A stretch of DNA of 64,000 bases from a virus (taxonomy: Duplodnaviria; Heunggongvirae; Uroviricota; Caudoviricetes). The notes under the pieces were generated by a model. It did not search any database and had not been told where the DNA came from. It was given only the letters and a program-made list of their open reading frames with translations. Made by a program: the position numbers and the translations under genes. The stretch lies in the IMG/VR virus record IMGVR_UViG_3300043467_001216; one strand, 5' to 3'. Of this stretch, positions 15,281 through 42,717 are shown one piece after another (position 1 is the stretch's first letter; every line of letters begins with the position of its first letter).

Positions 15281-15282
15281 TT

Positions 15283-19307: not shown

Positions 19308-22300
19308 GTGAGTCAAAATATTTATCAATATCAAAATTCAAGTGTGGGTTTAAAACTTAGTTTGGACTCATACGATATGTCTTTATCATCAGATGAGAGA
19401 GACTTCAATCAAGAAGTTGTGTATTCACCTTATTTAATCGCTCAAACATACGGTAATAGATTACCAATATATTTTGATATCAATAATACATTAACCGCCC
19501 AAAATTTAGTATTATCATATAAAAACTATAATTTTAATAACGTTTTTGTATCTCAAAATTTTAAAATAAATGATTCAGAGGATTTAAGTTGTTTCACAGC
19601 AAAAACATCTTGTGATATTGGTTTAACAGGAACTGATAACGGTTTAGTTACCGGTATGACCGCACAAACAATAACATTTACAAATGGTTTAGTTAATGAT
19701 TCAGATAAGTTCAATCGTTTAATTTTTGATAGACGATTCAAAATGTTTCAAGTTACAGGGTATACCAATACACCTAATTTTAGATTTTCAGGTTTTGAAG
19801 ACAATATTTTATATGAAGTTGTAAGTAAAAACAGTCCGTATATTGGTAGATATCACGAATTATATGGTGGTTTTTATCAAGGTTTCTATAAATTATTTGG
19901 GTACGATTATGATATTTTTCCTGAAAGAATGAATAAGGGATGGTCAGTTGAAATGCTATTGAAGCCAAGATTGGTTGATGAATACTCACCTGGTCCGGGT
20001 GAAACCACATTAAACGAAATTTACCCAAACAACAAAGACACATTTTTCTATTTTGGAGCAAGAGCCGAAAACAAATATTACCATCACGCTGATGGTTCAC
20101 CAAGTTCATTAACAGGTTATACTAGAATCACAAAACCTTTAGTTAGTCTTGAGACTTGTGCTTGTTGTAATACAGGTGTAACTAATAGTGACTGTATTTA
20201 TGTTTACCCTCCAAGGTCAAATGATGGTAAACACGACTCACATAAAAATTACGGATGTAATGTATGTGGTTGTGATACAAAAACTAATGGTGGTAATTGT
20301 TCAGGATGTGGTTGTCCACCTGAAGAATATGAAAGTTGTGGATGGGAATGTAAAACACATAGTTGTGGAACAGGTACAACCTCATCAATACAGAGTACTT
20401 GTGAAAGTAACCCATTAGATGACTCAATGTCAAATGCGTTATCATTTAAACTTTCGGGTGACCCAAAAAATCCAAGTATTTGTGTTAGAATATTAAGAAT
20501 TACCGGTGATTGTGAAACTAGCGGGTCTTGTACCACAACAGGGATTACGTACACCACAGGATACACAGTTGACGAACATTGTACTTTACCAATTTACCCT
20601 AGATGTCAAATTGAAAACCCCGCGTGGTTAGAAGAAGAACATTGGTTTCAATTTAATGCTGTATGGGAACGTTATACTTGGTTGGATGATTGTGATTTAA
20701 AATATAGAGGTGGATTAGACGATATTACCGAAAAATTATATTTAGAATCGTTAGCGAATAATTCACAGATATTAATAACCCCATTTTATAACCACGAAGG
20801 TGCTACACCAGCTAAAACAATTGATTTAGTTAAGTTAAATGAAAAATGGTTAATTAATAAAAAATATCGAAATGGTCGTTTAAAAATTTACATAAATGGT
20901 AAATTGTTTCAAACGTTTGAGAATATTGAAGAATTAATACCAAGAGCTTTACCAACTGAAAAAGAAAAACAAGTTGGTGTACCATTTAATATTTCTTGGG
21001 GTGGGGGAACTCAAGGTTTAAGAGAACATCTAATCCCAAAACAAGTACCTGTTTGTGACATTGTTGGTGGTGTGTTAATTAATGTTGTTTTGACTTCTGA
21101 AATTTTACCGGGTTCAATAAAAATTACTTACACGTTAACATCATCATCAATACTTAACGAAGATTTAACTGTTGATTTTAAACACATATTAGATGTTAAA
21201 ACAGGTAACCCAATTGAAATAATCACGGGTGTAACAATTAACTCAGGTCAAACTACGGGAACAACACTTGTTAGTTTACCCGATGATTATAATAACTTGA
21301 ATGGTATAACAACATTTACCTCTGTTGATGCAACAAACCCAACACTATCTAAATGTTGTAACATTAACGCTAACCCACCAATATTTGCAACACCAACACC
21401 AACACCAACTAATACTCAAACCCCAACAAATACTCAAACACCAACTAATACTCAAACCCCAACAAATACAGTTACTCAAACTAAAACACCGACTCAGACA
21501 ATAACACCAACTAATACTAATACTCAAACCATCACCCCAACAAATACTGAAACACCAACACCAACACCTACAAATACAATAACACCTACAAATACAATAA
21601 CCCCAACAAATACTGAAACACCAACACCAACACCAACTAACACAATTACACCAACTAACACAATTACACCAACTAACACAATTACACCAACTAACACAAT
21701 TACACCAACAAATACCGAAACACCAACACCAACTCCGACTAATACAATAACCTCAACAAATACCCCAACACCAACTAATACAATAACACCAAGTTCAACA
21801 TTAGGAATAACACAAAGTGGATTAATTTTAGATTGGGATATTCAAAATACGTTATCTTATAATGGGTCGGGGTCTGTTATAACTGATTTGGAAGGTAACT
21901 CTAATGGTGTTATAACAGGAACTATTACTTATAGTAGTGGAAGTCCTAATTATTTAACTATTGAAGGTTCAACAACCGAATATATAAGAACCGGAGGTCT
22001 TAATGCGTATCTATCACCTGTTAACACAGGTGAAGTAATGTCATTATTTATGTGGGTTTACCCAATAACTAATGGTATTTTATTATGTGAACAAGGAACT
22101 ACAACACCTGATTCATCTTGGTTTGATGCTCAAATACAACGAAATTCAAGTGGTAATTTCTTATTTGCAATTTGGCCATATGTTATAAACGGAACCGCAC
22201 TGATTACTTCACCTAGTATATACCCATTAAATAATTGGTACTATGTCGGTTGGACATATAATGGAACAACATTAACAGCGTACGTTAACGGTTCATCAGT

Positions 22301-22529
22301 TGGTACTTACACAGTGAATAGAGAAACACCATATAACAGTAATGGTTTAAATATGTATTATTACTTAGGATATCCAACGTCAACTAACTTGGTTACAACA
22401 CCTGGCGGTATAGGTCAAGGACCCGCATCAACGTTTAGATTTGGAGGATTTAATGTTTATAACAGGGGAATCAATTCATCTGAAGTAACCCAAAACTATA
22501 ATAGTAGTAAATCTAATTATGGTTTATAA
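19308..22529 (+). CDS. Putative virion protein: Cys-rich/LamG-like N-part, Thr-Pro linker, C-terminal LamG domain
   Basis: TPT repeats at ~21390-21790; 'GLILDWD..SY.GSG', 'WYYVGWTYNG..YVNG', 'YNRGI..EV.QNY..YGL'. Confidence 0.75.
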   Translation: MSQNIYQYQNSSVGLKLSLDSYDMSLSSDERDFNQEVVYSPYLIAQTYGNRLPIYFDINNTLTAQNLVLSYKNYNFNNVFVSQNFKINDSEDLSCFTAKTSCDIGLTGTDNGLVTGMTAQTITFTNGLVNDSDKFNRLIFDRRFKMFQVTGYTNTPNFRFSGFEDNILYEVVSKNSPYIGRYHELYGGFYQGFYKLFGYDYDIFPERMNKGWSVEMLLKPRLVDEYSPGPGETTLNEIYPNNKDTFFYFGARAENKYYHHADGSPSSLTGYTRITKPLVSLETCACCNTGVTNSDCIYVYPPRSNDGKHDSHKNYGCNVCGCDTKTNGGNCSGCGCPPEEYESCGWECKTHSCGTGTTSSIQSTCESNPLDDSMSNALSFKLSGDPKNPSICVRILRITGDCETSGSCTTTGITYTTGYTVDEHCTLPIYPRCQIENPAWLEEEHWFQFNAVWERYTWLDDCDLKYRGGLDDITEKLYLESLANNSQILITPFYNHEGATPAKTIDLVKLNEKWLINKKYRNGRLKIYINGKLFQTFENIEELIPRALPTEKEKQVGVPFNISWGGGTQGLREHLIPKQVPVCDIVGGVLINVVLTSEILPGSIKITYTLTSSSILNEDLTVDFKHILDVKTGNPIEIITGVTINSGQTTGTTLVSLPDDYNNLNGITTFTSVDATNPTLSKCCNINANPPIFATPTPTPTNTQTPTNTQTPTNTQTPTNTVTQTKTPTQTITPTNTNTQTITPTNTETPTPTPTNTITPTNTITPTNTETPTPTPTNTITPTNTITPTNTITPTNTITPTNTETPTPTPTNTITSTNTPTPTNTITPSSTLGITQSGLILDWDIQNTLSYNGSGSVITDLEGNSNGVITGTITYSSGSPNYLTIEGSTTEYIRTGGLNAYLSPVNTGEVMSLFMWVYPITNGILLCEQGTTTPDSSWFDAQIQRNSSGNFLFAIWPYVINGTALITSPSIYPLNNWYYVGWTYNGTTLTAYVNGSSVGTYTVNRETPYNSNGLNMYYYLGYPTSTNLVTTPGGIGQGPASTFRFGGFNVYNRGINSSEVTQNYNSSKSNYGL

Positions 22530-22551
22530 ACATATTTATAATTAAAAAGTA

Positions 22552-23940
22552 ATGGCATCAACAGTAGTTATAGGAACTAGAAATTATAGTGGTGAAACTG
22601 CCGAAATTACATTTTACCCAGAAACAGGCGGTACAATAAATGTTGGAATACAAGTTGTTCCTTACAATTATACAACTGATTATTTTTTTGGTAAGTATGA
22701 ATTATTTTTTTCAGCTTATAATTTCACTTGTGACTTTACCATTTCATCATCTAACCCTATACCCTCACCTCAAACAATAACGGCAACAACCGTTGAATAT
22801 GATTTATTTCAAAGGTATACTCAAGACCCTGAGAATTTTTCAGATATGGATTTAAGTCCAACCACATTTAGTGGTTTAAATACTAATATATTAATTAACA
22901 AATATTTTGCAGGTTCTTTTGAAGGTGCAATATCTCAATTTAGATTTTACACATCACCCCTATCCGCACCTGAAGTTAAACACAATTTTAGTTTATTGAA
23001 GAACCCATTTATAATGTTCAATCCTGATTGTCCTGATTGTTCTACAGACAGTTGTGCTATTAATGATTTTACATATGTAATTAATAACACACAAGAATTA
23101 GAACCACCGTTAGAAATTAAGCCGGATGTTTCACTATTAGGTAGAATGTATATCCCTGATATTAGAGATAAAAATTACCTAATTAAGGATAACTATGATT
23201 ATCTACTTAGTATTGTTCGTGCTAGACCTATTGTTAATAAATATAAAATAACACCAACACCAAGTAAAAGTAGACCAATATTACCAACACCAACACCAAC
23301 AAGAACACCAACAAGAACACCAACAAAATCTAAACCGGTATTAGTTACGCCAACACCATCAAAAACACCTGTTTATCAATTTAAGTATTGGGACTCAGAT
23401 GGTTGGTGGGGTAATCAACGTAATTTACCTCATTGTGTTGGTTATTCTTGGGCTCATTGGGTTGAAGATGGTCCTGTAGGTCACGAAGGTACTCCACCAA
23501 TAATTTCACCTGTTACAATCTATAACGAAGCTCAAAAAATTGATGAATGGCCGGGAGAAAATTATGCAGGTACATCAGTTAGAGCAGGTGCAAAATATTT
23601 ACAATCTAAAAACGTAATTAAATCATACTATTGGGGTTACGACTTAAACACGTTAATTAATTCAGTGTTTGAATTAGGCCCTGTAGTTGTTGGTACTTAT
23701 TGGTATTCAGGAATGTTTTACCCTAACTCAAACGGGTTAATTAGAGTGACAGGTGGTATTGTCGGAGGACACGCATATTTAATAAATGGTGTTGATAAAG
23801 AAAAAAAACTTTTTAGAATAAAAAATAGCTGGGGACAAACTTGGGGTAAACAAGGACACGCATTTATCTCATTCAATGATATGTCAAGATTAATATCAAT
23901 GAATGGTGAAGTTTGTTTAGCAATCGAAAATAATTTTTAA
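22552..23940 (+). CDS. Mosaic protein with a C-terminal papain-like (C1) cysteine peptidase
   Basis: NQRNLPHCVGY (Gln/Cys), GGHAY (His), KNSWG (Asn). Confidence 0.85.
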   Translation: MASTVVIGTRNYSGETAEITFYPETGGTINVGIQVVPYNYTTDYFFGKYELFFSAYNFTCDFTISSSNPIPSPQTITATTVEYDLFQRYTQDPENFSDMDLSPTTFSGLNTNILINKYFAGSFEGAISQFRFYTSPLSAPEVKHNFSLLKNPFIMFNPDCPDCSTDSCAINDFTYVINNTQELEPPLEIKPDVSLLGRMYIPDIRDKNYLIKDNYDYLLSIVRARPIVNKYKITPTPSKSRPILPTPTPTRTPTRTPTKSKPVLVTPTPSKTPVYQFKYWDSDGWWGNQRNLPHCVGYSWAHWVEDGPVGHEGTPPIISPVTIYNEAQKIDEWPGENYAGTSVRAGAKYLQSKNVIKSYYWGYDLNTLINSVFELGPVVVGTYWYSGMFYPNSNGLIRVTGGIVGGHAYLINGVDKEKKLFRIKNSWGQTWGKQGHAFISFNDMSRLISMNGEVCLAIENNF

Positions 23941-23944
23941 TTAG

Positions 23945-25111
23945 ATGAGTAATACAATAGTAATATCAAGTGTTAATTATGACGGTGAGTCAGCTAATAT
24001 ATTATTTAAACCCGACAATGATAATGTCACTATAAATTTAAATAAAGAATTCGGTCAAATTATATTACCATATACGTTTGACCCCTCAACTTTAATACCC
24101 CCTCGTGATGTATTTGGAACGTACACAATATTAGTTGATAATTCAAAATGTCCTAATTTTATGAACGTTGTTAGACCAACACCAACACAAACGCCAACTA
24201 AAACAATTACACCTACAGTAACTAAAACCCCTACTAAAACTCCAACTCCAACTATAACACCCAACCCTTGTTTAATTTCTCCAACACCAACATCAACAGT
24301 AACTCCAACAGTAACCCCAACATTAACTAAAACCCCAACTCCAACATTAACTAAAACCCCAACTCCAACATTAACACCGTTATCTTGTTTTCAAAAATAT
24401 AATAATTGGTGGAATACACATTCATTTTTATCATATTCATCAATTACTAATTATTATACTTATTCATACTTACCTAGCTCAACGTTTATTAGTACAGGAG
24501 GATTATCAATGTTTAATGTCGGTAATACCATTTTATTTAGTAACCCATTTCCAAAAGTCTATGGAACTGTTGGTACTGATTTTTTAATTAGTAAACCAAA
24601 TATTTGGCCTCAAATAACATTAATTAATTTAGGTACAACCATTAGTCCACATTCAATATCGGAAATTGGTTTACCGTCGATTATTTCAGGTAATGACCCA
24701 ACTTATGGACCATACACTATTACTCGTGAGGTTACATTAACCGAAGGAACTTATAGTTGTAATAACATCACTGGTAGTTGGTATCGTTATAGTAATATCG
24801 GTGTTAACCCTATATTTTTATCAGGACAAACACCTTGCCCATCAATCGAATATGTTTGGTTTACTGTTGAATCAACCGATTGGAATACAGTCATTTCTAG
24901 TGTTTCCGATAATAGAGGTAGCGTATCAAATCCAAATCAATTAGATTCGACCGTAACAGTCATAGGTGAAAATGGATTTATTGGTATGATATTATTATCA
25001 AAATATAACCCATCGTTACCGTCGACAATAATACCTAATAATCAAATTACAACATTTTTACAAAACACAATATGTGAAATGTTTAACAGTGTTAATTGTG
25101 TTGATTTTTAA
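23945..25111 (+). CDS. Putative virion protein with a Thr-Pro linker
   Basis: N-terminal domain paralogous to that of 22552; TPT repeats at ~24175-24380. Confidence 0.7.
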   Translation: MSNTIVISSVNYDGESANILFKPDNDNVTINLNKEFGQIILPYTFDPSTLIPPRDVFGTYTILVDNSKCPNFMNVVRPTPTQTPTKTITPTVTKTPTKTPTPTITPNPCLISPTPTSTVTPTVTPTLTKTPTPTLTKTPTPTLTPLSCFQKYNNWWNTHSFLSYSSITNYYTYSYLPSSTFISTGGLSMFNVGNTILFSNPFPKVYGTVGTDFLISKPNIWPQITLINLGTTISPHSISEIGLPSIISGNDPTYGPYTITREVTLTEGTYSCNNITGSWYRYSNIGVNPIFLSGQTPCPSIEYVWFTVESTDWNTVISSVSDNRGSVSNPNQLDSTVTVIGENGFIGMILLSKYNPSLPSTIIPNNQITTFLQNTICEMFNSVNCVDF

Positions 25112-25192
25112 TATTTAAGAATTTTAAAAAAAACTTATTATTTTAATAATAAAAATGTTAAAATATCAACTTTTTAGGTATTTATTTTTTAA

Positions 25193-28100
25193 ATGAGTGT
25201 AATATATATAACAAGTTTAACAGGTCATTCACCTTACGACATAACAATCTGTGATTTAACTAGAACATACTGTGAAGTTGTCTTAACAGGTGTCGTTTCG
25301 GTCCCCCCTGTATTGGAGATACCCGCGTTTGAACCTATTGAAGGTGAACCGTTATCTGAAGTCTTAGTTATTGTTACCGATTCAACAGGTTGTGAAGAAT
25401 TCTTATACTTATCTTGTGAACCAACACCAACCCCAACACCTACTAATACGGTCACACCAACAGTAACCCCAACACCTAATAAGTGTAAGTGTTACACAAT
25501 TATTAACCCAACGAATGACCCATTACCATTTCAAATAACTTTATGTGATGGTAATACATTAATTACTGATATTGACGGGGATACCACATTATATTATTGT
25601 GGTTATGATGTTGTCGTTGAGTCACCTGTGTATATTTTAACACCTAAATTTGGTTGTGATGTCAACGGATGCCCTGAACCATACCCAACGTCAACTCCAA
25701 CACCAACAGTCACACCTACTTTACCACCAGTTATTGGTAACTTTAGAAGTTGTTGTGATTCATCTTATGAATTTAGAATATCAAACATTCCTGGGTCGTA
25801 CTCACCATTAAATGGTACTTATTTTATTTCAAATACAAACTTTGAAGGATGTGCTCAATATATTGGGAGTACAACCTCACCGATAATATTCCAACACCAA
25901 TTTATGGGTCAATCAACTAATTGTTATGATTGTCAAATTGAAAACCCATCTTATTTGTGTTTAACCCCAACCCCAACCCCGACAGTTACCACCACTAATA
26001 CTGTCACCCCGACGGTGACTCCAACAAATACCGAAACACCAACTCAAACACCTACAAACACTAATACTCAAACACCAACTGTTACCGAAACACCAACTCA
26101 AACACCAACTGTTACCGAAACACCAACTCAAACGCCAACTGTTACCGAAACACCAACTCAAACTGTAACCCCAACTGTTACCGAAACACCAACGCAAACT
26201 ATAACACAAACTGTTACACCAACAAATACAATAACAAGAACACAAACACCGACTAACACAAGAACTCAAACACCGACTAACACAAGAACTCAAACACCAA
26301 CAAATACTAACACACAAACCAAAACACAAACTCCAACTAACACTAACACACAAACTCCAACTAATACTGAAACCCCTACTAACACACCAACCAACACAAA
26401 TACACCAACAAATACTATTACACCTACTAACACAAGAACACAAACACAAACGCCAACTAATACTATAACTCAAACACAAACCCCGACAAATACTAGAACA
26501 CAAACACCAACAAATACAAGAACACAAACACCAACAAACACAATAACATCAACACAAACACCAACAAACACAATAACATCAACCAACACACCAACTAATA
26601 CAAGAACACAAACTCCAACAAAAACACAAACACAAACACCAACAAATACTCGTACACAAACACCAACAAACACAATAACACAAACACCAACAAATACTCG
26701 TACACAAACACCAACTAATACTCGTACACAAACACCTACAAAAACACAAACACCAACTAATACTATAACTCAAACAAAGACACAAACACCAACTAATACT
26801 ATAACTCAAACACAAACACCTACTAATACTATCACACAAACCCCAACAAATACTAACACACAGACACCGACTAACACACAGACCCCAACTAATACTAACA
26901 CACAGACCCCAACTAACACTATTACTCAAACTCCAACTAATACTATCACACAAACAAACACTCAAACACAGACAAGAACTCAAACCCCAACAAATACTAA
27001 TACGAGTACACCAACAAACACAATAACACAAACACAGACAAGAACTCAAACCCCAACAAATACAAGAACTCAAACCCCAACAAATACAATAACAAGAACA
27101 CAAACAAGAACACAAACCCCAACAAATACGCCAACAAAAACACAAACACCCACAGTAACCATAACACCAACTAACACAAGAACTCAAACACAAACACCAA
27201 CAAATACTATAACCCAAACACCAACAAATACCACAACAAACACCCCAACCACAACTCAAACACCAACACCAACAACACCATATGATTTATTTATCGTTGA
27301 AAGTTGTTGTAATAATACAACAGGGTTTATGGAATTACCAATTAGTTTCACACCAACTTTTTTCCCAAGTTTTTCATCATTTGTTGTTTCAGATACTAAT
27401 GGATTTTGTTATAAAATCATATCATCAGGTCCTGGTGGTGAAACACCTGACTTATTTTGGAATGGTAATTATAACGACGTATACGTTGACACGGGTAACG
27501 GATGTGTGAATTGTATTTTAGTTCACCCTTGTCCTACCGCAACACCTACACCAACAAGAACACAAACACCGACTAACACTAAAACACCGACTAACACTAA
27601 AACACCAACCCAAACCCCAACTAACACTAAAACCCAAACACAAACACCAACTAACACAAGAACACAAACACCAACAAATACTAGAACACAGACTCCAACC
27701 CCAACATTGCCACCATTAATTTGTTTTAGATACACAAATAACATAACATCAGGTCAAATTCTGTACAATACAACTGCCGGAGGTTTTATCTATGGTAAAC
27801 CTTACTATGGTATTATAGATTCATTTACCGTTATTGGTTATGTTTGGTTTGACCCTACATTACAAATTTGGAAATATTCAGAATCAATTGGTAGTGGGAT
27901 AATATTCAGTATTTTAAATTTAGATAGTGAATATCCGGTAAGTAATTCTTTACATAATTGGACAGGTTCATTTGACGGTAATTCTATGTTATCCTCCAAC
28001 ATTGGTATTTGTTCCACACCAACACCAACACCAACAAATACTAAAACACCAACTAATACTCAAACACAAACCCCAACTAATACTCAAACACAAACCCCAA

Positions 28101-31100: not shown

Positions 31101-34100
31101 CACCAACAAGAACACAAACACCAACTAACACTATAACACAAACACAAACACCAACAAATACAATAACAAGGACAAAAACACCTACTAACACAAATACCCC
31201 GACAAGAACTCAAACACCAACCAATACCCCAACAAGAACAGTCACACCAACAAATACAATAACAAGGACAAAAACACCTACTAACACAAATACCCCGACA
31301 AGAACTCAAACACCAACCAATACCCCAACAAGAACAGTCACACCAACAAGAACAGTCACACCAACAAACACAATAACAAGAACAGTTACACCAACCAATA
31401 CAATAACAAGGACCCAAACACCAACTAACACAAGAACACAAACGCCAACAAACACAATTACAAGAACACAAACGCCAACAAATACAATTACAAGAACTAA
31501 AACTCCAACAAATACATCAACACCATCACCAACACCACCAATAGAATGTCATTGTTTTAACGCCACAAATACACCTTCAGGTATAATAATACCGTCTTTA
31601 GGTAACGCCTCACCTTACCCAATAACGTTTAACGTATCTGGTTTAGATTCACCTGTAACTAGAATTGAAGTTAGAATTAGTGGTTACTCACACGCAGACT
31701 CTAGTGATGTCGCAATGATTTTAAAATCACCAAACGGTAACACCGCTTTGTTAACAGGTAGACAAGGAACATCAATCCAACCTGTTAATAATGTTAATAC
31801 AATTTTAACTGACTATTCACCAACATTATGGGATGGTTATAGTTCAGGTACTTACACTAACGACACTTACGTGTATAAATCAATTGCGTGGAACACCTCA
31901 GGTTTACCTGATTATACCGCAACTCAAAATGGTAATAGTTTAACAACATTTATCGGAACCTCAGCTGCTAACGCAAATGGTACTTGGGAATTATATATTC
32001 AAGATTTTGGTATAAATGGGGGTGGTAATATTTTAGGTATCATTATATGTATTTGTGATTATACTATCCTACCATCTCAAACCCCAACTCAAACCCCAAC
32101 ACCAACTAATACCATTACAAGAACTCAAACACCAACAAATACAATTACAAGAACTCAAACTCCAACAAATACAATTACAAGGACTCAAACGCCAACAAAT
32201 ACAATTACAAGAACTCAAACGCCAACAAATACTTCAACACCAACTAACACACCAACAAGAACGGTTACACCAACTAATACAATTACAAGAACTCAAACCC
32301 CAACAAATACAAGAACTCAAACCCCAACAAATACACCAACAAGAACTCAAACCCCAACAAATACTCGTACCCAAACTCCAACAAGAACACAAACCCCAAC
32401 AAACACAATAACAAGAACACAAACACAAACTCCAACAAGAACACAAACCCCAACAAACACAATAACAAGAACACAAACTCCAACAATTACACAACCACCA
32501 TTAATTTGTTTCACAGTTTCAACAGGTTTTGTAACTTGGACTTCTAACGTAAGTTCTTTAGGATTTTTTAATGGTTACCCTTATTATCCAATTTATGACT
32601 CAAATTCAATTTTAATAGGGTATGTTTACCTCTCACCAGGTGCGGAGGAATGGTTTTTCTCCTCATTATTAAACGGTGGTGAAACCTATTCAGTTCTTAC
32701 AGGTGGTATCGGAACACCACAATACCCAATAAATAACACTCCTTTTTTATGGACTGTTGAGGGGGGTATTTATTATATTACTCAGTCAACATTAGGTGTT
32801 TGTCCGACACCAACACCAACACCTACAAATACCACAACACCTACAAATACCACAACTAAAACCCAAACACCAACAAGAACTCAAACCCGAACCCAAACAC
32901 CAACAAGAACCCAAACCCAAACACCAACAAGAACCCAAACCCAAACACCAACAACCCCATATTCATTATTTCAAATTCAAAGTTGTTGTAATTCATCATT
33001 ACATTTAATGTCATTACCAACAATTTACACACCATATTATGACAACCAACAATTTTTAACAATAACTTGGTCAGTTATTGCAACCGATGGTCTTTGTTAT
33101 AAAATACTTGGAGTGTCAACTGGCACACCAAATAAGATATGGAATAACGCCACACCAACACAAAATCTACCTTGGGCTCCTGACCCTTGTACATTATGTG
33201 TACCATCAAATGTTTGTCCAACATTAACACCAACACAAACACCAACACAAACACCAACTAAAACCCCAACACCAACAAATACAATAACAAGAACTCAAAC
33301 CCCAACAAATACAATAACAAGAACTCAAACCCCAACAAGAACGGTTACACCAACAAATACAATAACAAGAACTCAAACCCCAAGTGTAACAAAAACCCCA
33401 ACAAACACAATAACAAGAACTCAAACACCAACAAGAACGGTTACACCAACTAACACAATAACAAGAACTCAAACACCAACCCCAACAAAAACACCTACAA
33501 GAACACAAACCCCAAGTGTAACAAAAACCCCAACAAACACAATAACAAGAACACAAACAAAAACCCCAACTAGAACCCAAACACCAACAAACACAAGAAC
33601 ACAAACGCCAACTAGAACTCAAACACAAACCCCAACAACACCATACACATTATTCAACGTTATTAGTTGTTGTGATTTGGTAACTCTTCACAAAATGTTA
33701 CTACCAACAATTTACACACCAAGTCAATTCCCGTATTTTACTTATGTAGTTAAAGATACATTAGGACAATGTTATCAAATTTTTGAATCAACGACAGGTG
33801 TTGCAAATAAAATATGGAATGGTGCACAACCCGCTTATGACCCAATTGGTGAACAATGCGGTATCTGTTTACAAACAAATCCTTGTCCGACACAAACACC
33901 AACACAGACAAGAACACAAACCCCAACAAAAACACCTACAAGAACACAAACCCCAAGTGTGACAAAAACACCTACACAAACGCCAAGTGTGACAAAAACC
34001 GCAACAAATACACCAAGTGTAACAAAAACACCTACAAGAACACAAACACCAACAAAAACGCTAACTCAAACACCAACAAAAACACCAGTACCTCGTCTAT

Positions 34101-36580
34101 GTTCTATGAGTGGTTATGTTTATGAAATATCTTGTTCTTCATTATATTGTGTTGTACCTTGTTGTAGTTTAAATCGTGTTTATCCTGAGTCAAATTGTGT
34201 TTTACCTTCAACCTGTAATGACCCATCATATATGGTCAGTATACCAAATATTGATATAAACTTTTTAGATGACAGTTTCTTTCAGATTACTACCTCAGAC
34301 CTTGAATGTTTTGATTGTGATAGTAATTGGACTGACGTTGATGAGAACATCGCCATTAACAGAAATGAATTTTTACAAAAGTATCTTCAAAATTTAGATT
34401 ATAGATATAATGGTTGGACTACAGATGTTAACTCATTAACTTCTTATTACCAATTTTTTGGTAGTAATAGTTCCAAATTTTCCAGAACTAAACTTAGATT
34501 AGTTAATTATAAGTGGTATAGACCGTTAAATTATTATGAATCTTGGACCACACCAACTTTTTGTACAACATCACTATCAACAATATTTGGACCAATAACA
34601 GGTTTTACTTATTTACCACCAATTAACAACATATCATTAGCACCAACACCTAGTGTTAATGGTCGTTTAATTGTAACAACAGGAGCAACACAATCAACTT
34701 ATTTTTGGAATCCAACAACTAATACTTGGACTGACATTAACAATACTAGTTGTGTTGCACAAAGTATAAACCAATTATTACTTGTTATGAACCAAATTAG
34801 GAATATATCAAGTAGTAAAAAAAGCACATTATTATTAGGAAATTCCGTTTTTACCAAAATAGGATTATATTTACCAGCATTTCAATTTTTTAAATATAGA
34901 AATTATACATTACCATCAGGTCCATTAAGTTTAAGTGAGACCGAAAACATTGTTACAGAACCAATAATTGAACAAATAACCGAACCATTACAAATAAGTT
35001 GTTTAGCCAATAGTTATGTTATGGTATTACCTGAATCATTACCAAGCAATACGGTTGTTAAAGATAATAATGGTTTATGTTATAGAACAATACAAGAAAA
35101 CCCGATAAATAGCCCTTACATAGGACCAATGTTATATCAAAGTGGTTCTACAACATTTGTTGATTGTCAAAACTGTAGTAACTCAATTACAGTTCAAATA
35201 TTAGCACAAACTGATTTACCTTTATACGCCAATTGTGACATAGTTACCTCAACAAGTATGGTATATCGTGTTAATAACGGACCTTGGGTTACTTTATCTT
35301 CAGTAGTTGACGCTACCGGTACGACATACACAGTCTTAAATTCTATAACAGTTGGTGTAGGTGTTACTATTGATGTCTATTTTCCAGGAATCAAATGGGG
35401 TGTCGGATATTTATCAGGTGATTATACATCAAGATGTGATAACCAATATTACACATATTCAGTTTCTAGCTTAGCTAATGGTGTGATATATTTTAATTTA
35501 AAAAGTCAGGTAACAGTACTACCTGTACCGCCATTTATTCAATATCAATGTGGATTTGAACCTTGCCCCTCATTTACAATTCCCAATCCTTGGAGATGGA
35601 CATGGTATGATTCATTTACCGAAGATAATATCTTCACAATGTCAGAATCACCTGGTGTTTGGAATGGTAGAAGATATTATGAAGTACCTAATAATAATTA
35701 TACTTCAACAGTTTCTTATGTTTGGTATGATACCCCAACAACAAATTGGTATAATTCATCTGTGTTAGGTTCAGGTACTTTATATTCTTATTTAGAGAGT
35801 TCATCGCCTACACAACCAATCAGTGGACCATTTAATCAATGGGTTGATTTATCAAGTGGACCATATATTATGATTAGTTCAGAACCTCAATACCCAATTG
35901 AAGTGTCGGGTCTTGTAGTATGGTTAGATGCTGGTTCTGATTTATCTTGGCCTAGTTTGGGAACTGCGTGGAACGATATTACGGATAATAATAATAACTC
36001 AACATTTTACCAATCATTAGTACCAACAAATGCCGCAACGGTTTTTTCATCAGATAAAATGGGTAATTTTAGTTTTAATGGTAGTAATCAAAAATTCGCA
36101 ATTCCTAACACATCAACATTATCAGCAATTACTAACACAGTATCAGTTGAGGTTTGGTTGAAACCAACATTATTTGCCAATCGAGAAATTTTCAGTAAAG
36201 GTAGTAATGATGGGATAAGAATGAGAATTGACCCAACAGGTCACTTATGGATGTTGGGAGCAAATGCACCTGGAATTGGTTTTGGCACATACACAAGTAC
36301 AGGAACAACAACATTAAACCAATGGAATCAAGTTGTTGGTGTATGGACATCAACAGGTTTCTACACATATATTAACGGTGTTGATTCAGGATATGATTTA
36401 AACTTGTCATTATTAATACAAGACTATAACTTACCACTTGATATTGGTTGTTTTACAGGTGACAATTCTAACTTCCACTATCAAGGTTATATGTCAATAT
36501 TTAGAATATATAATAGAGCGTTAACTTCCGATGAGGTATTGTCTAATTTTAACAGTCAAAAAGATAGATTTGGTTTATAA
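25193..36580 (+). CDS. Giant 3795-aa mucin-like modular fibre/adhesin (Thr-Pro repeats, Cys-rich modules, P-domain, C-terminal LamG)
   Basis: Uninterrupted 11.4-kb ORF; P-domain-like '[28 protein letters not shown]'; LamG '[25 protein letters not shown]'. Confidence 0.85.
25960..34090 (+). repeat. Nine low-complexity coding blocks of TPT(N/K/R)T(R/I/Q)TQ-type repeats (A/C-rich, G-poor)
   Basis: Degenerate 18-30-nt units such as acaccaacaaatacaagaactcaa, separated by globular modules. Confidence 0.95.
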
Positions 36581-36632: not shown

Positions 36633-37880
36633 ATGAAAATTTTTGTGCAAATTGCATCGTATAGAGACCCTGAATTGGAGAACACAATTAAAAGCATGAT
36701 TGAGAATGCTAAAAAACCTAACAATCTTAGAATTGGTGTTTGTAGACAATACCACCCTGAAGATGGTTTTGATACCTTAAATGAATTTAGAAAAGATAAA
36801 AAATTTAGAATATTAGATGTTTTATATAACGAATCTAAAGGTGTTTGTTGGGCTAGAAATCAAGTACAACAATTATATGGTGGTGAGGAATACACACTTC
36901 AGATAGATTCACATATGAGATTTGAAAAAAATTGGGATGATGAATTTATTAAAATGGTTAAACAATTACAGAAAAAAGGATTTAAAAAACCTTTATTAAC
37001 GGGGTATGTATCATCATTTAACCCTGAAAATGACCCGGCTGAAAGAATTAAAGAACCTTGGAGAATGGTGTTTGACCGTTTTATCCCCGAAGGTGCGGTA
37101 TTCTTTTTACCTGAAACAATACCAGGTTGGGAACAATTAAAAGAACCTGTAACATCAAGATTTTACTCAGCTCACTTTGCCTTTACTGTAGGTCAATTTA
37201 GTACTGAGGTACAACACGACCCTGAATTTTATTTTCACGGAGAAGAGATTTCAATCGCCGCTAGAGCTTATACTCACGGATATGATTTGTTCCACCCACA
37301 TAAAACATTGATTTGGCACGAATACACAAGAAAAGGTAGAACAAAACAATGGGATGATGATAAAGAATGGGTAATGAGAAATAATGTGTCACATAGTAAA
37401 AACAGAAAATTGTTTGGTATGGATGGCGAATTATCTGATGTTGATTTTGGTATTTACGGTTTTGGTACTGAGAGAACACTTAAAGAATATGAAATTTACT
37501 CAGGTTTAAGATTTTCAAGACGTGCGGTTCAACAATACACGTTAGATAAAAACTACCCACCAAATCCATTTATATTTGAAACCGAAGAGGAATGGGAAGA
37601 TAGTTTTGCTACAATATTTAAACATTGTATTGATGTTGGTTATGACTCAGTACCTGAAACAGATTATGAATTTTGGGTAGTTGCTTTCCACGATGAAAAT
37701 GATGAAACAATTCATAGACAAGATGCTGATATTAACGAAATTAATCGTATGAAAAATGACCCTGACGGATATTGTAAAGTATGGAGAGAATTTCAAACAA
37801 CACATAAACCAAAGTATTGGGTTGTTTGGCCGTACTCGACATCTAAAGGATGGGGTGATAGATTAACAGGTAGTTTATAA
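36633..37880 (+). CDS. GT60-like polypeptide/hydroxyproline alpha-GlcNAc transferase (Gnt1 / 'GlcNAc' family)
   Basis: IFVQIASYRDPEL, GVCWAR, LQIDSHMRF..WD (DSH motif), 'FHGEEI..AARAYTHGYDLF'. Confidence 0.85.
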   Translation: MKIFVQIASYRDPELENTIKSMIENAKKPNNLRIGVCRQYHPEDGFDTLNEFRKDKKFRILDVLYNESKGVCWARNQVQQLYGGEEYTLQIDSHMRFEKNWDDEFIKMVKQLQKKGFKKPLLTGYVSSFNPENDPAERIKEPWRMVFDRFIPEGAVFFLPETIPGWEQLKEPVTSRFYSAHFAFTVGQFSTEVQHDPEFYFHGEEISIAARAYTHGYDLFHPHKTLIWHEYTRKGRTKQWDDDKEWVMRNNVSHSKNRKLFGMDGELSDVDFGIYGFGTERTLKEYEIYSGLRFSRRAVQQYTLDKNYPPNPFIFETEEEWEDSFATIFKHCIDVGYDSVPETDYEFWVVAFHDENDETIHRQDADINEINRMKNDPDGYCKVWREFQTTHKPKYWVVWPYSTSKGWGDRLTGSL

Positions 37881-37894
37881 AAATATTAAATAAA

Positions 37895-38674: not shown

Positions 38675-38687
38675 AAACACACATAAT

Positions 38688-39422
38688 ATGAACTTAAATG
38701 AAATACCAAAATTTGTCCTAAACTTAGAAAAAAGAACCGATAGATTAGAACATATTAAACAGGAAATGTCGTACATTGGGTGGGACTATGAATTATTTAA
38801 AGCGATTGACACAGGGTGTCATGTAGGATGTACATTATCTCATGTTGCCATTATTGATTTAGCGATTGAAAGAGATTATGAATACGTTATGGTAATTGAA
38901 GATGATTGCTCATTTTTACCTAACGCTAAATCATTTATAAAACAATTAAATGTTGTTTTAGAAAATACCGAATTTGGGATTCTAAATTTATCCCCAACAC
39001 ATAATCGACCTGTTGAAATTAGTGTGAAAGATAAAATGTTAATAGATATTACTAATTATCCACCAAAAGAAGAAATACATAGGGGTGTTTATGCGACAAA
39101 TATGATTGTATATCATAAATCAATATATGAGAATGTTAAGGGAATTATAACTGAAAATTTACATGGTTATTACCCAATTGATGAGTATATTTATCTTAAA
39201 GTATTACCAATCAAACAAAGTTATTGCCCAATATTACCAATAGCCCCTCAAAAAAGTGATTTCTCAGATGTTACCCAAGGTAATTATAGTAATTTTTATC
39301 TACAAACATACAATTGGAACTTATATTCCCCATATAAAATAGATTCAGAATTTTTAAATTACGAATCTAATCAACAAATAAAAAAGAATAATATACATAA
39401 AGAATTTAATTATGTCAGTTAA
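38688..39422 (+). CDS. GT25 glycosyltransferase (beta-galactosyltransferase family)
   Basis: 'VLNLEKRTDR', 'GCTLSH', 'VIEDD', 'PID'. Confidence 0.85.
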   Translation: MNLNEIPKFVLNLEKRTDRLEHIKQEMSYIGWDYELFKAIDTGCHVGCTLSHVAIIDLAIERDYEYVMVIEDDCSFLPNAKSFIKQLNVVLENTEFGILNLSPTHNRPVEISVKDKMLIDITNYPPKEEIHRGVYATNMIVYHKSIYENVKGIITENLHGYYPIDEYIYLKVLPIKQSYCPILPIAPQKSDFSDVTQGNYSNFYLQTYNWNLYSPYKIDSEFLNYESNQQIKKNNIHKEFNYVS

Positions 39423-40296
39423 AATTATAACATCAATTTATAGTGATTTATTTAGAACTAAATTTGGTGGTAGACCAAGTAGAGGTGGCCATTATAGATG
39501 GAGTTTATTATCATTATTAAAAATGTCTGATGCCGATTTCATTTGTTACACGTCGGAACGAGAAATTGAAGGATTAGAAACTTTTTTCTATGTTGAAAAC
39601 AACGTAGATAGGGATAAATTAAAATTAGTAACATACGATTTAGAAAATCATTATTTTTTAGAATTATTTAAAAAATACAAAAACTATGATGCGTGTGATA
39701 AAAATGGTAGTGATAGATGTATCGAAATCCAATATATGAAATTTATATGGTTTAAAAACGAGGACATGTCATATGACCATTATTTTTGGTTTGATGCCGG
39801 TTTATCTCATTGTGGATTAATACCTAATAAACATTTATCAAAAACAGGAATTCATAATAGTCAATATTATTCAAGTGATTTGTTTAATAATAACTTTTTA
39901 AGTAATTTAATATCTAAAAGTGAAGATAAATTCACTATTGTTAGTAAAGAAAACGACAGGAATTATTGGTCGGGTACTGTTAACCCAAAACATTTTATTA
40001 ATGGTTATGATAGAAGTAGACACGTAATTGGTGGTTTTTTTGGTGGTAAAAAAGAGTTATGGGTTAATGTGTTAGAATTATTTGAAAAGTATGTTAATGA
40101 GGTAACCGAATCGGATAATTACCTATATCACGAAGAAGATATTATGACATTAATGTTTAGAAATCATCCTGACTTATTTTTAAGTTATGAGTTTGACACT
40201 TGGTGGCATGAAGATGAAAGAATTGCCGGTCTTGTGATGGATGAACACTTAAAAATTAATAAAAGTTTTTATAAAATTTTAGAAGAATTAAATTAA
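39412..40296 (+). CDS. HtrL/YibB-like (GT-A, GT6-reminiscent) protein
   Basis: 'IITSIY', WFDAG, GGFFGG, 'HEEDIM'. Confidence 0.6.
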   Translation: MSVKIITSIYSDLFRTKFGGRPSRGGHYRWSLLSLLKMSDADFICYTSEREIEGLETFFYVENNVDRDKLKLVTYDLENHYFLELFKKYKNYDACDKNGSDRCIEIQYMKFIWFKNEDMSYDHYFWFDAGLSHCGLIPNKHLSKTGIHNSQYYSSDLFNNNFLSNLISKSEDKFTIVSKENDRNYWSGTVNPKHFINGYDRSRHVIGGFFGGKKELWVNVLELFEKYVNEVTESDNYLYHEEDIMTLMFRNHPDLFLSYEFDTWWHEDERIAGLVMDEHLKINKSFYKILEELN

Positions 40297-40297
40297 T

Positions 40298-42013
40298 ATG
40301 GAAAAACTAACAATCGTTACAGGTTTATGGGATATTGGTAGAGAACATTTAAATAATGATTGGTCTCGTAACTATAAACATTATTTAGATAAACTATCTG
40401 ATTTATTAAAGATTGATGTTAACTTAATCATTTTTGGTGATGAGAACCTTCAACAGTTTGTCAATAAAAACAGAGAAAATAGTAACACTCAATTTATTTT
40501 ACGTAACACAGATTGGTTTAAAAACAATGATTATTACGATAAAATACAAAAAATAAGAAATAACCCTGAGTGGTCTAATCAAGTAAGTTGGTTAAAAGAT
40601 TCTACACAATCCAAATTAGAGTTATATAATCCATTGGTGATGAGTAAAATGTTTTTACTTAATGACGCCAGAATTATGGATAAATTTAATTCTGATTATT
40701 TATTTTGGTTAGATGCCGGTATCACTAATACAGTTCATCCTGGATATTTTACTCACGATAAAGTATTAGAAAAATTACCTAAGTATTTAAAAAAATTCAC
40801 ATTTGTTGCGTTTCCGTATGACGCTGAAACAGAAATTCACGGATTTAATTATTCTGAAATTAACAAATACGCAGGGAACAAAGTTGAGATAGTTGGTAGA
40901 GGTGGTTTTTTCGGTGGTCATAAAGACACAATATCAAATATCAATGGTGTTTATTATTCATTATTAAATGAAACATTAAATAATGATTTGATGGGTACTG
41001 AAGAAAGTTTATTTTCAATTCTATTGTATAAACACCCTGAATTAACAAGCTTTTTTGAAATTGAAAAAAATGGTTTAATAGGTACGTTTTTTGAAAATCT
41101 AAAGAATGATAATTTAGAATTAAAACAAACAGTTCAAGTAATTTCTAACTTATCAAATAGTGTAACACCTTCAATATCACCAATTACATATCAAACTGTA
41201 GTTAATGATAAGGTTGGTTTATACGTTATCGGATTTAATAGTCCAAATCAATTACAAACATTAATTGATTCTATGTTAGAGTATGATAAAGATTTTATTG
41301 ACAAACCAAGAAAAATATTATTAGATAACTCAACTGATTTAACAACAACACCTATTTATAGTGAGTTGTGTTCTAAATATGGTTTTGAACACATTAAAAA
41401 AGATAATTTAGGAATCTGTGGTGGTAGACAATGGATTGCCGAACATTTTGAAAAATCTGATTTAGAATATATGTTCTTTTTTGAAGATGATATGTTCTTC
41501 TACCCTAAAAAAGGTGAAGTGTGTAGAAACGGGTTTAATCGTATGGTTGATAACCTATATGAGAAATCAATTAAAATATCTAAGAACGAAAATTTTGATT
41601 TTTTAAAATTAAATTTCAGTGAGTTTTTTGGAGATAATTCAGTTCAATGGTCTTGGTATAATGTACCTCAAGTTGTTAGAGATGAGTATTGGCCTGAATA
41701 CCCTAAGTTACCAGAACAAGGTACTGACCCTAACGCTCCTAAAGTGAGGTATGAAAATGTTAAATCATTAGATGGTGTACCATATGTTACAGGTGACATT
41801 TATTATTGTAATTGGCCTCAATTAGTCTCAAAATCAGGAAGTAAAAAAATGTTTTTAAATACAACTTGGGCTCACCCATATGAACAAACTTGGATGAGTT
41901 TTATGTATCAGGAGCTAAAGAAAGGTAATTTAAATTTTGGTTTGTTGTTATTAACACCAACCGAACATAACAGATTCGACCATTACAGTAGAGATTTAAG
42001 AAAAGAAAGTTAA
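40298..42013 (+). CDS. HtrL/YibB-like domain fused to a GT-A domain
   Basis: 'LTIVTGLWDIGR..WLDAG..GGFFGG..TEES'; second half 'LLDNS..NLGICGGRQ..FFEDD'. Confidence 0.65.
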   Translation: MEKLTIVTGLWDIGREHLNNDWSRNYKHYLDKLSDLLKIDVNLIIFGDENLQQFVNKNRENSNTQFILRNTDWFKNNDYYDKIQKIRNNPEWSNQVSWLKDSTQSKLELYNPLVMSKMFLLNDARIMDKFNSDYLFWLDAGITNTVHPGYFTHDKVLEKLPKYLKKFTFVAFPYDAETEIHGFNYSEINKYAGNKVEIVGRGGFFGGHKDTISNINGVYYSLLNETLNNDLMGTEESLFSILLYKHPELTSFFEIEKNGLIGTFFENLKNDNLELKQTVQVISNLSNSVTPSISPITYQTVVNDKVGLYVIGFNSPNQLQTLIDSMLEYDKDFIDKPRKILLDNSTDLTTTPIYSELCSKYGFEHIKKDNLGICGGRQWIAEHFEKSDLEYMFFFEDDMFFYPKKGEVCRNGFNRMVDNLYEKSIKISKNENFDFLKLNFSEFFGDNSVQWSWYNVPQVVRDEYWPEYPKLPEQGTDPNAPKVRYENVKSLDGVPYVTGDIYYCNWPQLVSKSGSKKMFLNTTWAHPYEQTWMSFMYQELKKGNLNFGLLLLTPTEHNRFDHYSRDLRKES

Positions 42014-42040
42014 AAGAGGTAGTAATACCTCTTTTGTTTT
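42012..42040 (+). terminator. Rho-independent terminator closing the GT operon
   Basis: aaaagaggta-GTAA-tacctctttt followed by a T-run. Confidence 0.85.
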
Positions 42041-42075
42041 TTTAATATCAAACTATTTATAATTAAAAATAGTAG

Positions 42076-42717
42076 ATGGATTTTTTTATAAAAAAAAATG
42101 CAACATTACCTTTATTAAAGTTACAAGTCGTTAATAACGGAAGAAGTGATTTTGATAATTTTATGAAAACAATAGAATTATCGGCAATCTTTTTTTCTAT
42201 GGTGGATGTTGATACGGGAATACCTAAAATAAGTTCTAAACCAGGAGGATTTGTTGAGAAAACATTTATAGACCCTAATGCGGAACCTGAATATTATATA
42301 TACTATCAGTTAACTTCAACTGACACTAACCGTGTTGGTAAATATGAAGGTCAATTTCTATTAAGAAGTGATGAGGGTGTTTTAATATTACCAATACGTG
42401 AAAAACTAAATGTTTACGTTCAGGAATCATTTATTGCTAACGATTTAACATACGAAAGTTGTTATGTGTCTGAATTCCCTTGTTGTGTTAATGGTCCTTA
42501 TGTTACAACAACAACAACAACACCTTGTCCTAGTTGTGGTCCTCAAACAACACCAACACCAACAATTAGTGTAACACCAACAACAACACCAACAAGAACA
42601 CCTACACCAACACCAACACCTTCATCAACACCAACTCAACAAGTATTTGATAATCCGGTTTTAATAGACCCTGACACTTATTTTGAGGTTGGTGAAAATC
42701 AATATTTAACATTTTAA
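42076..42717 (+). CDS. Putative baseplate/fibre adaptor (BppU-N-like) with a Thr-Pro tail
   Basis: 'FFIKKNATLPLL..YY..DTNRVGKYEGQF' followed by TPT repeats. Confidence 0.55.
   Translation: MDFFIKKNATLPLLKLQVVNNGRSDFDNFMKTIELSAIFFSMVDVDTGIPKISSKPGGFVEKTFIDPNAEPEYYIYYQLTSTDTNRVGKYEGQFLLRSDEGVLILPIREKLNVYVQESFIANDLTYESCYVSEFPCCVNGPYVTTTTTTPCPSCGPQTTPTPTISVTPTTTPTRTPTPTPTPSSTPTQQVFDNPVLIDPDTYFEVGENQYLTF

Follow-up and report, generated by a model that had tools for sequence, protein, structure and literature searches.

A GT60-family glycosyltransferase operon beside threonine-rich tract proteins in an uncultured jumbo phage: a candidate O-glycosylation system

Gene content of the locus

A window of 64,000 nucleotides (nt) from the IMG/VR virus record IMGVR_UViG_3300043467_001216 was analysed. 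It carries a five-gene glycosyltransferase operon (36633-42013) and genes for threonine-rich proteins on both sides of it, which together may form a phage system for protein O-glycosylation. The window is part of a record of 131,650 bp with an estimated completeness of 45%, and its G+C content is ~30%. It encodes a tail sheath of 1284 amino acids (aa), an SNF2 helicase, a divergent family-B DNA polymerase and a head-tail adaptor-like protein and was therefore classified as a fragment of a jumbo myophage. The source is an uncultured phage of ~300 kb from a very abundant clade, the complete relatives of which comprise 290-322 kb. The GT60 protein encoded by the first gene of the operon was represented by >7,400 clusters at 90% identity in a collection of 5.8 billion proteins, and 397 IMG/VR stretches encoded a relative of it.

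The five genes encode a GT60-family protein, a GT11-family protein, a GT25-family protein, an HtrL-like protein of the GT-A fold and a fusion of an HtrL_YibB half with a GT2-like half (Table 1). A sequence-only reading of this DNA had described a terminator-closed operon with GT11 and GT25 members; Pfam matches and a hairpin followed by a T-run bore out this description. Five open reading frames (ORFs) that the same reading had singled out for Thr-Pro tracts (19308, 22552, 23945, 25193 and 42076) were likewise confirmed. Their tracts were rich in Thr and Pro, with Thr at every second position (Thr-X tracts). A DNA pattern for eight alternating Thr codons was matched 864 times in the window and not once in 100 dinucleotide-preserving shuffles. 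Alternating Thr was used as the tract criterion. An earlier criterion of at least four Pro per 20 residues had overlooked Pro-poor Thr-X tracts, for example near locus L062.

Table 1. Features of the window. Positions are those of the 64,000-nt stretch.
Feature	Position	Strand	Evidence or remark
1073-aa protein, candidate glycosylation substrate	19308..22529	+	Thr-X tract at residues 690-836 (nt ~21375-21815)
462-aa protein	22552..23940	+	N-terminal domain, Thr/Pro linker at residues 241-263, C-terminal papain-family (C1) peptidase domain
388-aa protein	23945..25111	+	N-terminal domain of ~73 aa, Thr-X tracts at residues 74-108 and 110-145, C-terminal domain
3795-aa beads-on-a-string protein, main candidate substrate	25193..36580	+	Ends 52 nt before the GT60 gene
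GT60-family glycosyltransferase, 415 aa, soluble	36633..37880	+	PF11397, E 5.3e-70
GT11-family protein, 259 aa	37895..38674	+	PF01531, E 1.1e-22, 81 bits (cut-off 23.9); HIRRGDY motif
GT25-family protein, 244 aa, variable extension enzyme (predicted)	38688..39422	+	PF01755, E 1.4e-15, 58 bits (cut-off 24)
HtrL-like GT-A protein, 294 aa	39412..40296	+	Homology to XacN1 ORF332; AlphaFold2 fold
HtrL/GT2 fusion, 571 aa, conserved partner of GT60	40298..42013	+	PF09612, E 1.3e-15 (HtrL_YibB, N-terminal half); GT2-like C-terminal half
Intrinsic-terminator-like hairpin (11 pairs), then T-run	42011..42036	+	Directly after the last stop codon; closes the operon
213-aa protein	42076..42717	+	Thr/Pro tract at residues 155-190; between glycosyltransferase cassette and downstream DNA polymerase
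Adaptor-like gene	47066		Structural-type neighbour of the operon
Tail sheath, 1284 aa	53452-57306	+	Sheath-family match confined to the last ~300 residues; ~950 extra N-terminal residues
Second glycan-related gene set	2594..16500	-	Pfam; interspersed with PhoH, dUTPase and exonuclease
PhyH-type dioxygenase of the second set	10368-11234	-	Pfam
Phage-type glycosyltransferase of the second set	15283-16500	-	phrog_7162

Threonine-rich tract proteins

Long repeat domains rich in Ser, Thr and Pro, the substrate-side mark of mucin-type O-glycoproteins, were present in the window proteins. Half of the 3795-aa protein (1889 residues, 50%) consisted of Thr-X tracts. Tracts of at least 55 residues, which account for ~1850 of these 1889 residues, contained 42-51% Thr and 12-21% Pro. 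Small Cys modules are set between the tracts, four of a six-Cys type and three of a two-Cys type. The protein also holds a proprotein-convertase P-like domain (PF01483, E 2.7e-5), ends in a lectin-type Laminin_G_3 domain (PF13385, E 4.9e-19) and matched phrog_8510 with an E value of 1.1e-14. Its ORF showed a strong skew of C over G. The DNA repeats of the tracts were degenerate, with 64-94% matches; the tract composition has been maintained and is not the product of recent amplification.

The 1073-aa protein begins with 689 Cys-rich residues without known family. It ends in a Laminin_G_3 (ConA-like lectin) domain (PF13385, E 2.7e-9), and its C-terminus matched phrog_8510, annotated as 'virion structural protein' (E 2.4e-9). 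Homologues were found upstream of GT60 in many relatives. The N-terminal 691 aa had no tblastn match in cultured phages, and the N-terminal domains of the tract proteins had no match in PHROG. The peptidase domain of the 462-aa protein was recognised by PF00112 (E 6e-6) and by the peptidase family phrog_16701 (E 1.3e-49). The N-terminus of this protein resembles that of the 388-aa protein, which had no Pfam family. Display of the tract proteins on the virion is considered an evenly balanced proposition.

The GT60-family glycosyltransferase

The membership of the ORF at 36633 in GT60 is established, because its Pfam match, its motifs and its fold agree with the literature. Against PF11397 it scored 237 bits at a cut-off of 21, and the match was repeated on the genome record. 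The signatures IASYRD, QIDSH and GEE, on which the sequence-only reading had based its GT60 assignment, were present and coincided with columns that were invariant or almost so (Y10, D12, D92, H94, E204 and E205) in family alignments of 22 and 32 sequences. The DxH metal-binding motif was conserved. A sequence search of the PDB returned no solved GT60 structure, and a fold search was therefore used. The AlphaFold2 model had a mean predicted local distance difference test (pLDDT) score of 95.2. In a comparison with the PDB by VIA-align, the top 29 entries were all polypeptide N-acetylgalactosaminyltransferases (ppGalNAc-Ts), with Z scores of 19.1-22.6 and a root-mean-square deviation (rmsd) of ~3.4 Å over ~275 residues; other GT-A enzymes reached a Z score of 18 or less. 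Profile and structure searches thus both upheld the assignment.

GT60 is the family of protist polypeptide alpha-GlcNAc (N-acetylglucosamine) transferases. It is related to GT27 and has a GT-A fold akin to the catalytic domains of ppGalNAc-Ts (PMC8724618). Characterised members act on Thr-rich mucin domains, as in Dictyostelium and on the Trypanosoma cruzi acceptor KPPTTTTTTTTKPP, or on a hydroxyproline of cytoplasmic Skp1 (PMC8724618; PMC3769586). The enzyme at 36633 is accordingly proposed as a putative initiating polypeptide N-acetylhexosamine (HexNAc) transferase on tract Thr. The transferred sugar would probably be alpha-GlcNAc. Indirect support for such a transfer comes from the adjacency and co-occurrence of GT60 with Thr-X tracts and from glycoprotein staining of XacN1 virions. 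A route via hydroxyproline like that of Skp1 or of plant glycoproteins was not adopted, since prolyl 4-hydroxylase (PF13640) was found in none of five complete relatives. None of the glycosyltransferases in the window had a hydrophobic or transmembrane segment.

Outside the Pfam model, residues ~325-415 form a confidently modelled, beta-rich C-terminal domain of ~90 aa that is conserved in bacterial and phage homologues. Two alignments with GalNAc-T4 extended over this domain into the ricin-type lectin region (VIA rows 12 and 29, rmsd 6 Å). On the model, it could bind the acceptor or a glycan.

Operon partners

The GT11-family protein carries the motif HIRRGDY (HxRRxD), which we take to be the GDP-fucose motif typical of alpha-1,2-fucosyltransferases, and is a probable enzyme of this kind. 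The protein at 39412 had no Pfam match. It was 28-31% identical to ORF332 of Xanthomonas phage XacN1 and to its homologue in phage Xoo-sp13. In tblastn searches, residues 132-254 of the fusion at 40298 matched the same XacN1 ORF332 region, and 39412 is therefore regarded as a paralogue of the HtrL half of the fusion. Its AlphaFold2 model (pLDDT 92.6) showed a GT-A fold, with GT8 XXYLT1, GT6 BoGT6a and alpha-1,3-galactosyltransferase as the nearest folds (TM score ~0.45). With retaining GT8 and GT6 transferases nearest, it is a probable retaining glycosyltransferase. In the fusion, PF09612 covered residues 4-251 (58 bits, cut-off 24.1), and residues 365-425 gave a weak GT-A match.

Related loci in IMG/VR

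For comparison, 160 IMG/VR loci were gathered with GT60 proteins 55-95% identical to that of the window. Their gene order was conserved. Upstream of GT60 lay, in this order, the 1073-aa homologue, the peptidase protein and variable Thr-X ORFs; variable genes followed GT60, and after these came the HtrL/GT2 fusion, the 213-aa homologue and the DNA polymerase. At 104 of the 127 loci with at least 3 kb of upstream sequence, a Thr-X ORF on the same strand ended no more than 3 kb upstream of GT60. The density of tract ORFs was 0.73 per locus in the 2-kb bin adjoining GT60 and ~0.2 further off. The ORF immediately upstream of GT60 ranged from ~100 to >3300 aa. When loss of GT60 within the clade was followed via the DNA polymerase, most seemingly GT60-negative loci had the gene >10 kb away.

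The interval between GT60 and the HtrL fusion was hypervariable, at 1.4-11 kb. Of 139 related loci, 132 had the fusion and 123 the 213-aa gene. GT25 was found in 35 of the 139, and the first HtrL-like gene (39412 type) in 44. No GT11 homologue was detected in 240 related loci. Because these three genes are patchy, the conserved core is GT60 with the HtrL/GT2 fusion and not the set GT60-GT25-GT11. Relatives L006-L010, with GT60 proteins 86-95% identical to that of the window, held wholly different sets of two to ten genes between GT60 and the fusion. One of them (L008:1818-10660, GT60 89% identical) carried a GT10 fucosyltransferase, a GT2 enzyme and a sugar O-methyltransferase in the cassette instead. 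By gene content, the extension cassette appears strain-specific, in the manner of an O-antigen or capsule locus, and its hypervariability resembles the usual pattern of surface glycans. It is at odds with a fixed pathway. The sequence-only reading had proposed that Thr-GlcNAc is extended by galactose (Gal) and capped by fucose (Fuc). The distribution of GT11 and GT25 found here does not support this scheme, and the specific order GlcNAc-Gal-Fuc is considered doubtful.

Cultured phages

A search of 50,697 phage records with GT60 and with the full-length HtrL fusion gave matches in the same four phages each time and in no others: Xanthomonas phages XacN1 and Xoo-sp13 and Stenotrophomonas phages CM1 and RAS14. 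The GT60 homologue of XacN1 is ORF334. It and its Xoo-sp13 counterpart were 47-48% identical to the window enzyme, and the fusion was 40-41.5% identical over its full length to proteins of the four phages. The DNA polymerases of the window clade and the XacN1 lineage aligned only locally, at 25% identity, compared with 41-48% for GT60 and the HtrL fusion. The XacN1-type phages are a second, independent lineage with GT60, and tracts were present in the three of them that were scanned.

A six-fold alternating-Thr pattern was matched 213 times in XacN1, 150 times in Xoo-sp13 and 15 times in RAS14, against 1-5 matches for a control pattern. The Thr-X pattern was at background only in five GT60-negative jumbo phages (RsoM2USA, PA5oct, CBB, Atu_ph07 and RaK2), of which RsoM2USA is a relative of XacN1. 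RaK2 and PA5oct are low-GC phages, and some of the five are presumably as AT-rich as the window, going by published G+C contents. The expected co-occurrence of GT60 with Thr-Pro repeats across phage genomes was thus largely recovered: it held for three cultured positives against five negatives and for the adjacency in the clade, and it failed at 12 of 127 loci and in two partial genomes considered below.

At least ten XacN1 proteins carried tracts: ORF174, 180, 190, 232-236, 384 and the giant ORF325, where the tract lies close to the C-terminus. Homologues of ORF325 in other jumbo phages, PA5oct among them, are virion proteins confirmed by mass spectrometry. XacN1 virions show at least two glycoprotein bands in periodate-Schiff staining, ascribed by the authors to the phage glycosyltransferases ORF328 and ORF334 (PMC5852040). 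A GT60-bearing phage with glycoprotein in its virion lends support to the earlier reading of phage glycosylation; the step from there to the tracts is one that we infer.

Alternatively, the operon could glycosylate phage proteins other than the tracts, such as capsid, sheath or tail-tube in the manner of mycobacteriophages, with the tracts serving as plain spacers encoded in the same late or structural region. The unassigned XacN1 bands, the position of the operon among structural-type genes (sheath at 53452, adaptor-like gene at 47066) and the exceptions to tract co-occurrence are in keeping with such targets. However, the characterised GT60s and the nearest structural relatives act on unstructured peptide rich in Thr, Ser and Pro. 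A tract ORF of whatever size is the immediate upstream neighbour of GT60 in most relatives, and the proteins found with GT60/HtrL in bacteria amount to scarcely more than a Thr/Pro tail. Non-tract targets are considered improbable.

As a separate observation, XacN1 (AP018399.1, 270523-280671; L166) encodes a papain-family peptidase, ORF382, at a distance of two genes from ORF384, a 2823-aa Thr-X protein with the annotation glycerophosphodiester phosphodiesterase. This layout parallels the peptidase-bearing tract protein at 22552-23940.

Bacterial GT60 loci

GT60 homologues were widespread in Bacteroidota, Acidobacteriota, Gemmatimonadota, Verrucomicrobiota and Proteobacteria. Gene neighbourhoods were taken from a scan of genome contigs, since the records of distant GT60 representatives were mostly contigs of 2-4 kb, too short to show them. 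Loci that held GT60 together with an HtrL-like gene and an HtrL fusion encoded small proteins near GT60, composed of a signal or a PqqD domain and a Thr/Pro tail. In Gemmatimonadaceae (L235 and L245), a PqqD-domain protein with such a tail ended 49-64 nt before GT60. A Vicinamibacterales metagenome-assembled genome (MAG; L209) and a Deltaproteobacteria MAG (L198) encoded, 2.5 kb upstream, proteins with a signal peptide and a (TPTETPTQ)n-type tail, and Acidimicrobiaceae L214 a protein with a twin-arginine translocation (Tat) signal and a Thr/Pro tail directly downstream. In these high-GC genomes, the pairing was taken as supportive only.

The acceptor might also be no protein at all. The enzymes would then remodel the lipopolysaccharide (LPS) core, O-antigen or another envelope glycan of the host, or make a free oligosaccharide, and the Thr/Pro proteins would be unrelated neighbours. 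According to the Pfam descriptions, GT11, GT25 and HtrL_YibB are typical of bacterial LPS and O-antigen loci; LPS-core transferases are likewise without transmembrane segments, and a tract ORF is missing near most bacterial GT60 loci. Against this, the first and most conserved enzyme has a ppGalNAc-T-like fold and belongs to a family in which only polypeptide acceptors have been characterised. No flippase, polymerase, ligase or undecaprenyl-phosphate transferase was present among the annotated ORFs of the window, and tracts and GT60 come and go jointly among the cultured jumbo phages. A non-protein acceptor is given little probability.

Decoration of hypermodified phage DNA bases as an escape from restriction, in the style of T-even phages, was also weighed. 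It was suggested by a weak match (E 6e-4) of the C-terminal half of 40298 to a PHROG family of beta-glucosyl-HMC (hydroxymethylcytosine) alpha-glucosyltransferases. Each complete relative has one gene of the thymidylate synthase family, which could in principle encode a hydroxymethylase, and genes for a dUTPase and a dCTP-deaminase-like protein are present. However, a single ThyA-family gene per genome is most simply a thymidylate synthase. Bacterial chromosomes also have the GT60/HtrL module, next to genes for exported proteins with a Thr/Pro tail, and the GT60 fold is nearest to polypeptide transferases. On these grounds, together with the restriction-digest patterns of XacN1 DNA (Supplementary Fig. 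S6C of the XacN1 paper), DNA glycosylation was rejected as the principal explanation and is held to be highly improbable.

Two further bacterial loci were recorded. In Chitinophaga fulva (L172/L185), GT60 (10001-11302) is clustered with a radical-SAM enzyme, a 62-aa ORF, an ATP-binding cassette exporter with a C39 peptidase and a GT2 enzyme. This gene content resembles loci for ribosomally synthesised and post-translationally modified peptides and hints at a glycosylated secreted peptide. In the Deltaproteobacteria MAG (L198:2562-4019), a gene for a TMEM260-like protein O-mannosyltransferase adjoins the Thr/Pro-tail gene and the GT60/HtrL cluster.

Proposed glycosylation system

Enzyme families and their folds, Thr-X tracts, the layout of the operon and the association across relatives were all observed; from them we infer an acceptor, donor sugars, an order of steps and a virion location for the system. 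In the favoured interpretation, Thr-X tracts would be O-glycosylated in the cytoplasm by soluble enzymes, with initiation by GT60 and strain-variable extension. This is considered moderately probable. In the first step, the soluble GT60 enzyme (36633) would place a HexNAc, most likely alpha-GlcNAc from UDP-GlcNAc, on tract Thr. The acceptors would be the tracts of the upstream proteins 19308, 22552 and 23945 and chiefly of the 3795-aa ORF, in addition to the downstream protein 42076. The HtrL/GT2 fusion (40298) would then attach the next sugar or sugars, and the strain-variable cassette, here GT11, GT25 and the second HtrL-like GT-A enzyme, would complete the chain. The products would be extended, glycan-covered spacers that bear lectin-type, peptidase and small Cys-rich modules and are probably displayed on the virion.

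Several observations weigh against this interpretation. The XacN1 bands have been tied to no named protein. For the window's own tract proteins, the basis for a virion location is a single and thin one, the match of the C-terminal lectin-type domain to phrog_8510. Because a single clade accounts for the 160 IMG/VR loci, the adjacency found there amounts to about one evolutionary observation. No tract ORF was present within 10 kb of GT60 at 12 of the 127 loci. A 94-kb fragment had GT60 and no tract, and a 91-kb fragment had tracts and no GT60, not even where the gene usually lies ahead of the polymerase; both (G006, L281, and G007, L320) are partial genomes, each ~31% complete. Three more tract ORFs lie on the contig of the window, at a distance of 60-75 kb. 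In bacteria, the majority of GT60 loci, ~25 of Acidobacteriaceae among them, were without a Thr-X ORF within 10 kb. Thr/Pro linkers are common as unglycosylated spacers, and bacterial GT11, GT25 and HtrL proteins are mainly associated with the loci for LPS and O-antigen.

A wider interpretation is offered tentatively, as possible and less likely than the cytoplasmic system itself. The abundant freshwater jumbo phages of this clade and, independently, the XacN1-like phages of Xanthomonas and Stenotrophomonas would possess a viral glycocalyx of bottle-brush fibres of up to ~3800 aa. The tracts would be densely O-glycosylated in the host cytoplasm through GT60 initiation, fucosylated blood-group-like caps would be included, and the glycans would be swapped as cassettes like O-antigens. 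Such a system would be a prokaryotic counterpart, and possibly an ancestor, of eukaryotic mucin-type O-glycosylation.

Relation to known systems

Mucin-type O-glycosylation in which a GT60 or GT27 enzyme adds the first sugar counts as a eukaryotic trait, and to our knowledge glycosylated phage particles are known from few cases only. The protist GT60s, Golgi Gnt2 and cytoplasmic Gnt1 of Dictyostelium and TcOGNT2 of T. cruzi, share the PF11397/CAZy family and the catalytic motifs of 36633. Gnt1 is a soluble cytoplasmic enzyme, as proposed for 36633. Gnt2 and TcOGNT2 act on Thr-rich mucin-like acceptors, and candidate acceptors of that kind adjoin the window GT60. The Skp1 glycan has the structure GlcNAc-Gal-Fuc-..., and some mucin O-GlcNAc of Dictyostelium is capped with fucose (PMC8724618). 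These fucose-bearing glycans parallel the fucosyltransferase-family neighbour of the window GT60. Unlike the protist enzymes, the window GT60 is from a phage, with relatives also in many bacteria, and has the extra C-terminal beta-rich domain of ~90 aa. Its partners are HtrL-type GT-A enzymes, whereas those of the Skp1 pathway are GT2/GT74 or GT77. The GT27 ppGalNAc-Ts of animals and Toxoplasma are the closest solved folds and have in common the GT-A fold, the DxH metal motif and Thr/Pro-rich peptide acceptors. However, 36633 is only 10-17% identical to them, belongs to another CAZy family and has by sequence neither a ricin-type lectin domain nor a signal anchor.

The cultured phage XacN1 shares with the window the GT60 enzyme (47% identity), an HtrL-like gene, the HtrL/GT2 fusion (41%) and the tracts, and its cluster likewise has the genes for a giant virion-type protein and the DNA polymerase in its vicinity. 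It differs in a carbamoyltransferase in place of GT11 and GT25 and in tract proteins that are scattered and not beside GT60. Its authors did not connect the enzyme with GT60 or with tracts. According to Freeman et al. (2023, Cell Host Microbe), cytoplasmic glycosyltransferases of mycobacteriophages reportedly decorate C-terminal extensions of capsid and tail-tube subunits. Phage enzymes there act on the phage's own structural proteins, as proposed here, but reportedly belong to other families, with no GT60 and no Thr-X fibres.

In the serine-rich repeat adhesins of streptococci and staphylococci, GtfA/GtfB initiate with GlcNAc on long Ser/Thr repeats, and variable soluble extension enzymes adjoin the substrate gene. 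Cytoplasmic GlcNAc initiation, a giant fibre and strain-variable extension are features also of the system proposed for the window. The adhesin initiator, in contrast, is a pair of GT4 (GT-B) proteins, the substrate leaves by accessory Sec export, and the system is bacterial and not viral. Mimivirus fibrils and chlorovirus capsids are glycosylated by virus-encoded nucleotide-sugar and glycosyltransferase genes, independently of the host secretory pathway. Glycosylation of own proteins is akin to the present proposal, and the window also holds a second cluster of amino-sugar type; the giant viruses differ in being eukaryotic viruses with different enzyme families and linkages. Chlorovirus PBCV-1 is cited as a case in the XacN1 paper (PMC5852040).

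No description linking GT60 (PF11397), HtrL proteins and Thr-X tracts in phages was found in the literature, and the XacN1 authors came nearest. Relative to that literature, the present analysis joins self-glycosylation of phages and giant viruses with mucin-type initiation by GT60/GT27. If the proposal is true, very abundant lake phages carry a self-made, strain-variable sugar coat, which bears on adsorption, stability, grazing, aggregation and antigenicity. HtrL_YibB, a family of hitherto obscure function, would gain a role in the extension of protein glycans, and GT60 a prokaryotic and viral substrate class. XacN1 is amenable to testing, as it is cultured, its virions stain for glycoprotein and its virion proteomics are public (PXD008065).

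Second glycan gene set and additional observations

The second glycan-related gene set of the window comprised several GT2-type genes, a GT1-like gene, two sugar O-methyltransferases of CmcI/TylF type and a hexapeptide acyltransferase, besides the genes listed in Table 1. A DegT-like aminotransferase ORF was short, with ~75 N-terminal residues matching, and overlapped the next ORF. The set may provide or modify sugars for the same glycans. Three complete relatives (G002, G003 and G004) had full-length genes of the GDP-mannose-4,6-dehydratase type (PF16363, E 1e-118 to 1e-124), adjoined in G003 by a second short-chain dehydrogenase. From these genes, members of the clade may make their own deoxy-sugar nucleotides; no gene of this type was found in the source record, which is 45% complete.

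Contigs with GT60 proteins 52-82% identical to that of the window (L178-L193, L197, L202 and L221) were binned mostly to Bacteroidota MAGs, affiliated with Saprospiraceae, Lewinellaceae, Cytophagaceae, Arcticibacterium and Ginsengibacter. The binning may be read as a weak hint at the host phylum. In a 519-aa ORF (48216-49775, minus strand), residues 43-233 form a complete Fe/Mn superoxide dismutase; the ~285 residues behind it have no assigned function.

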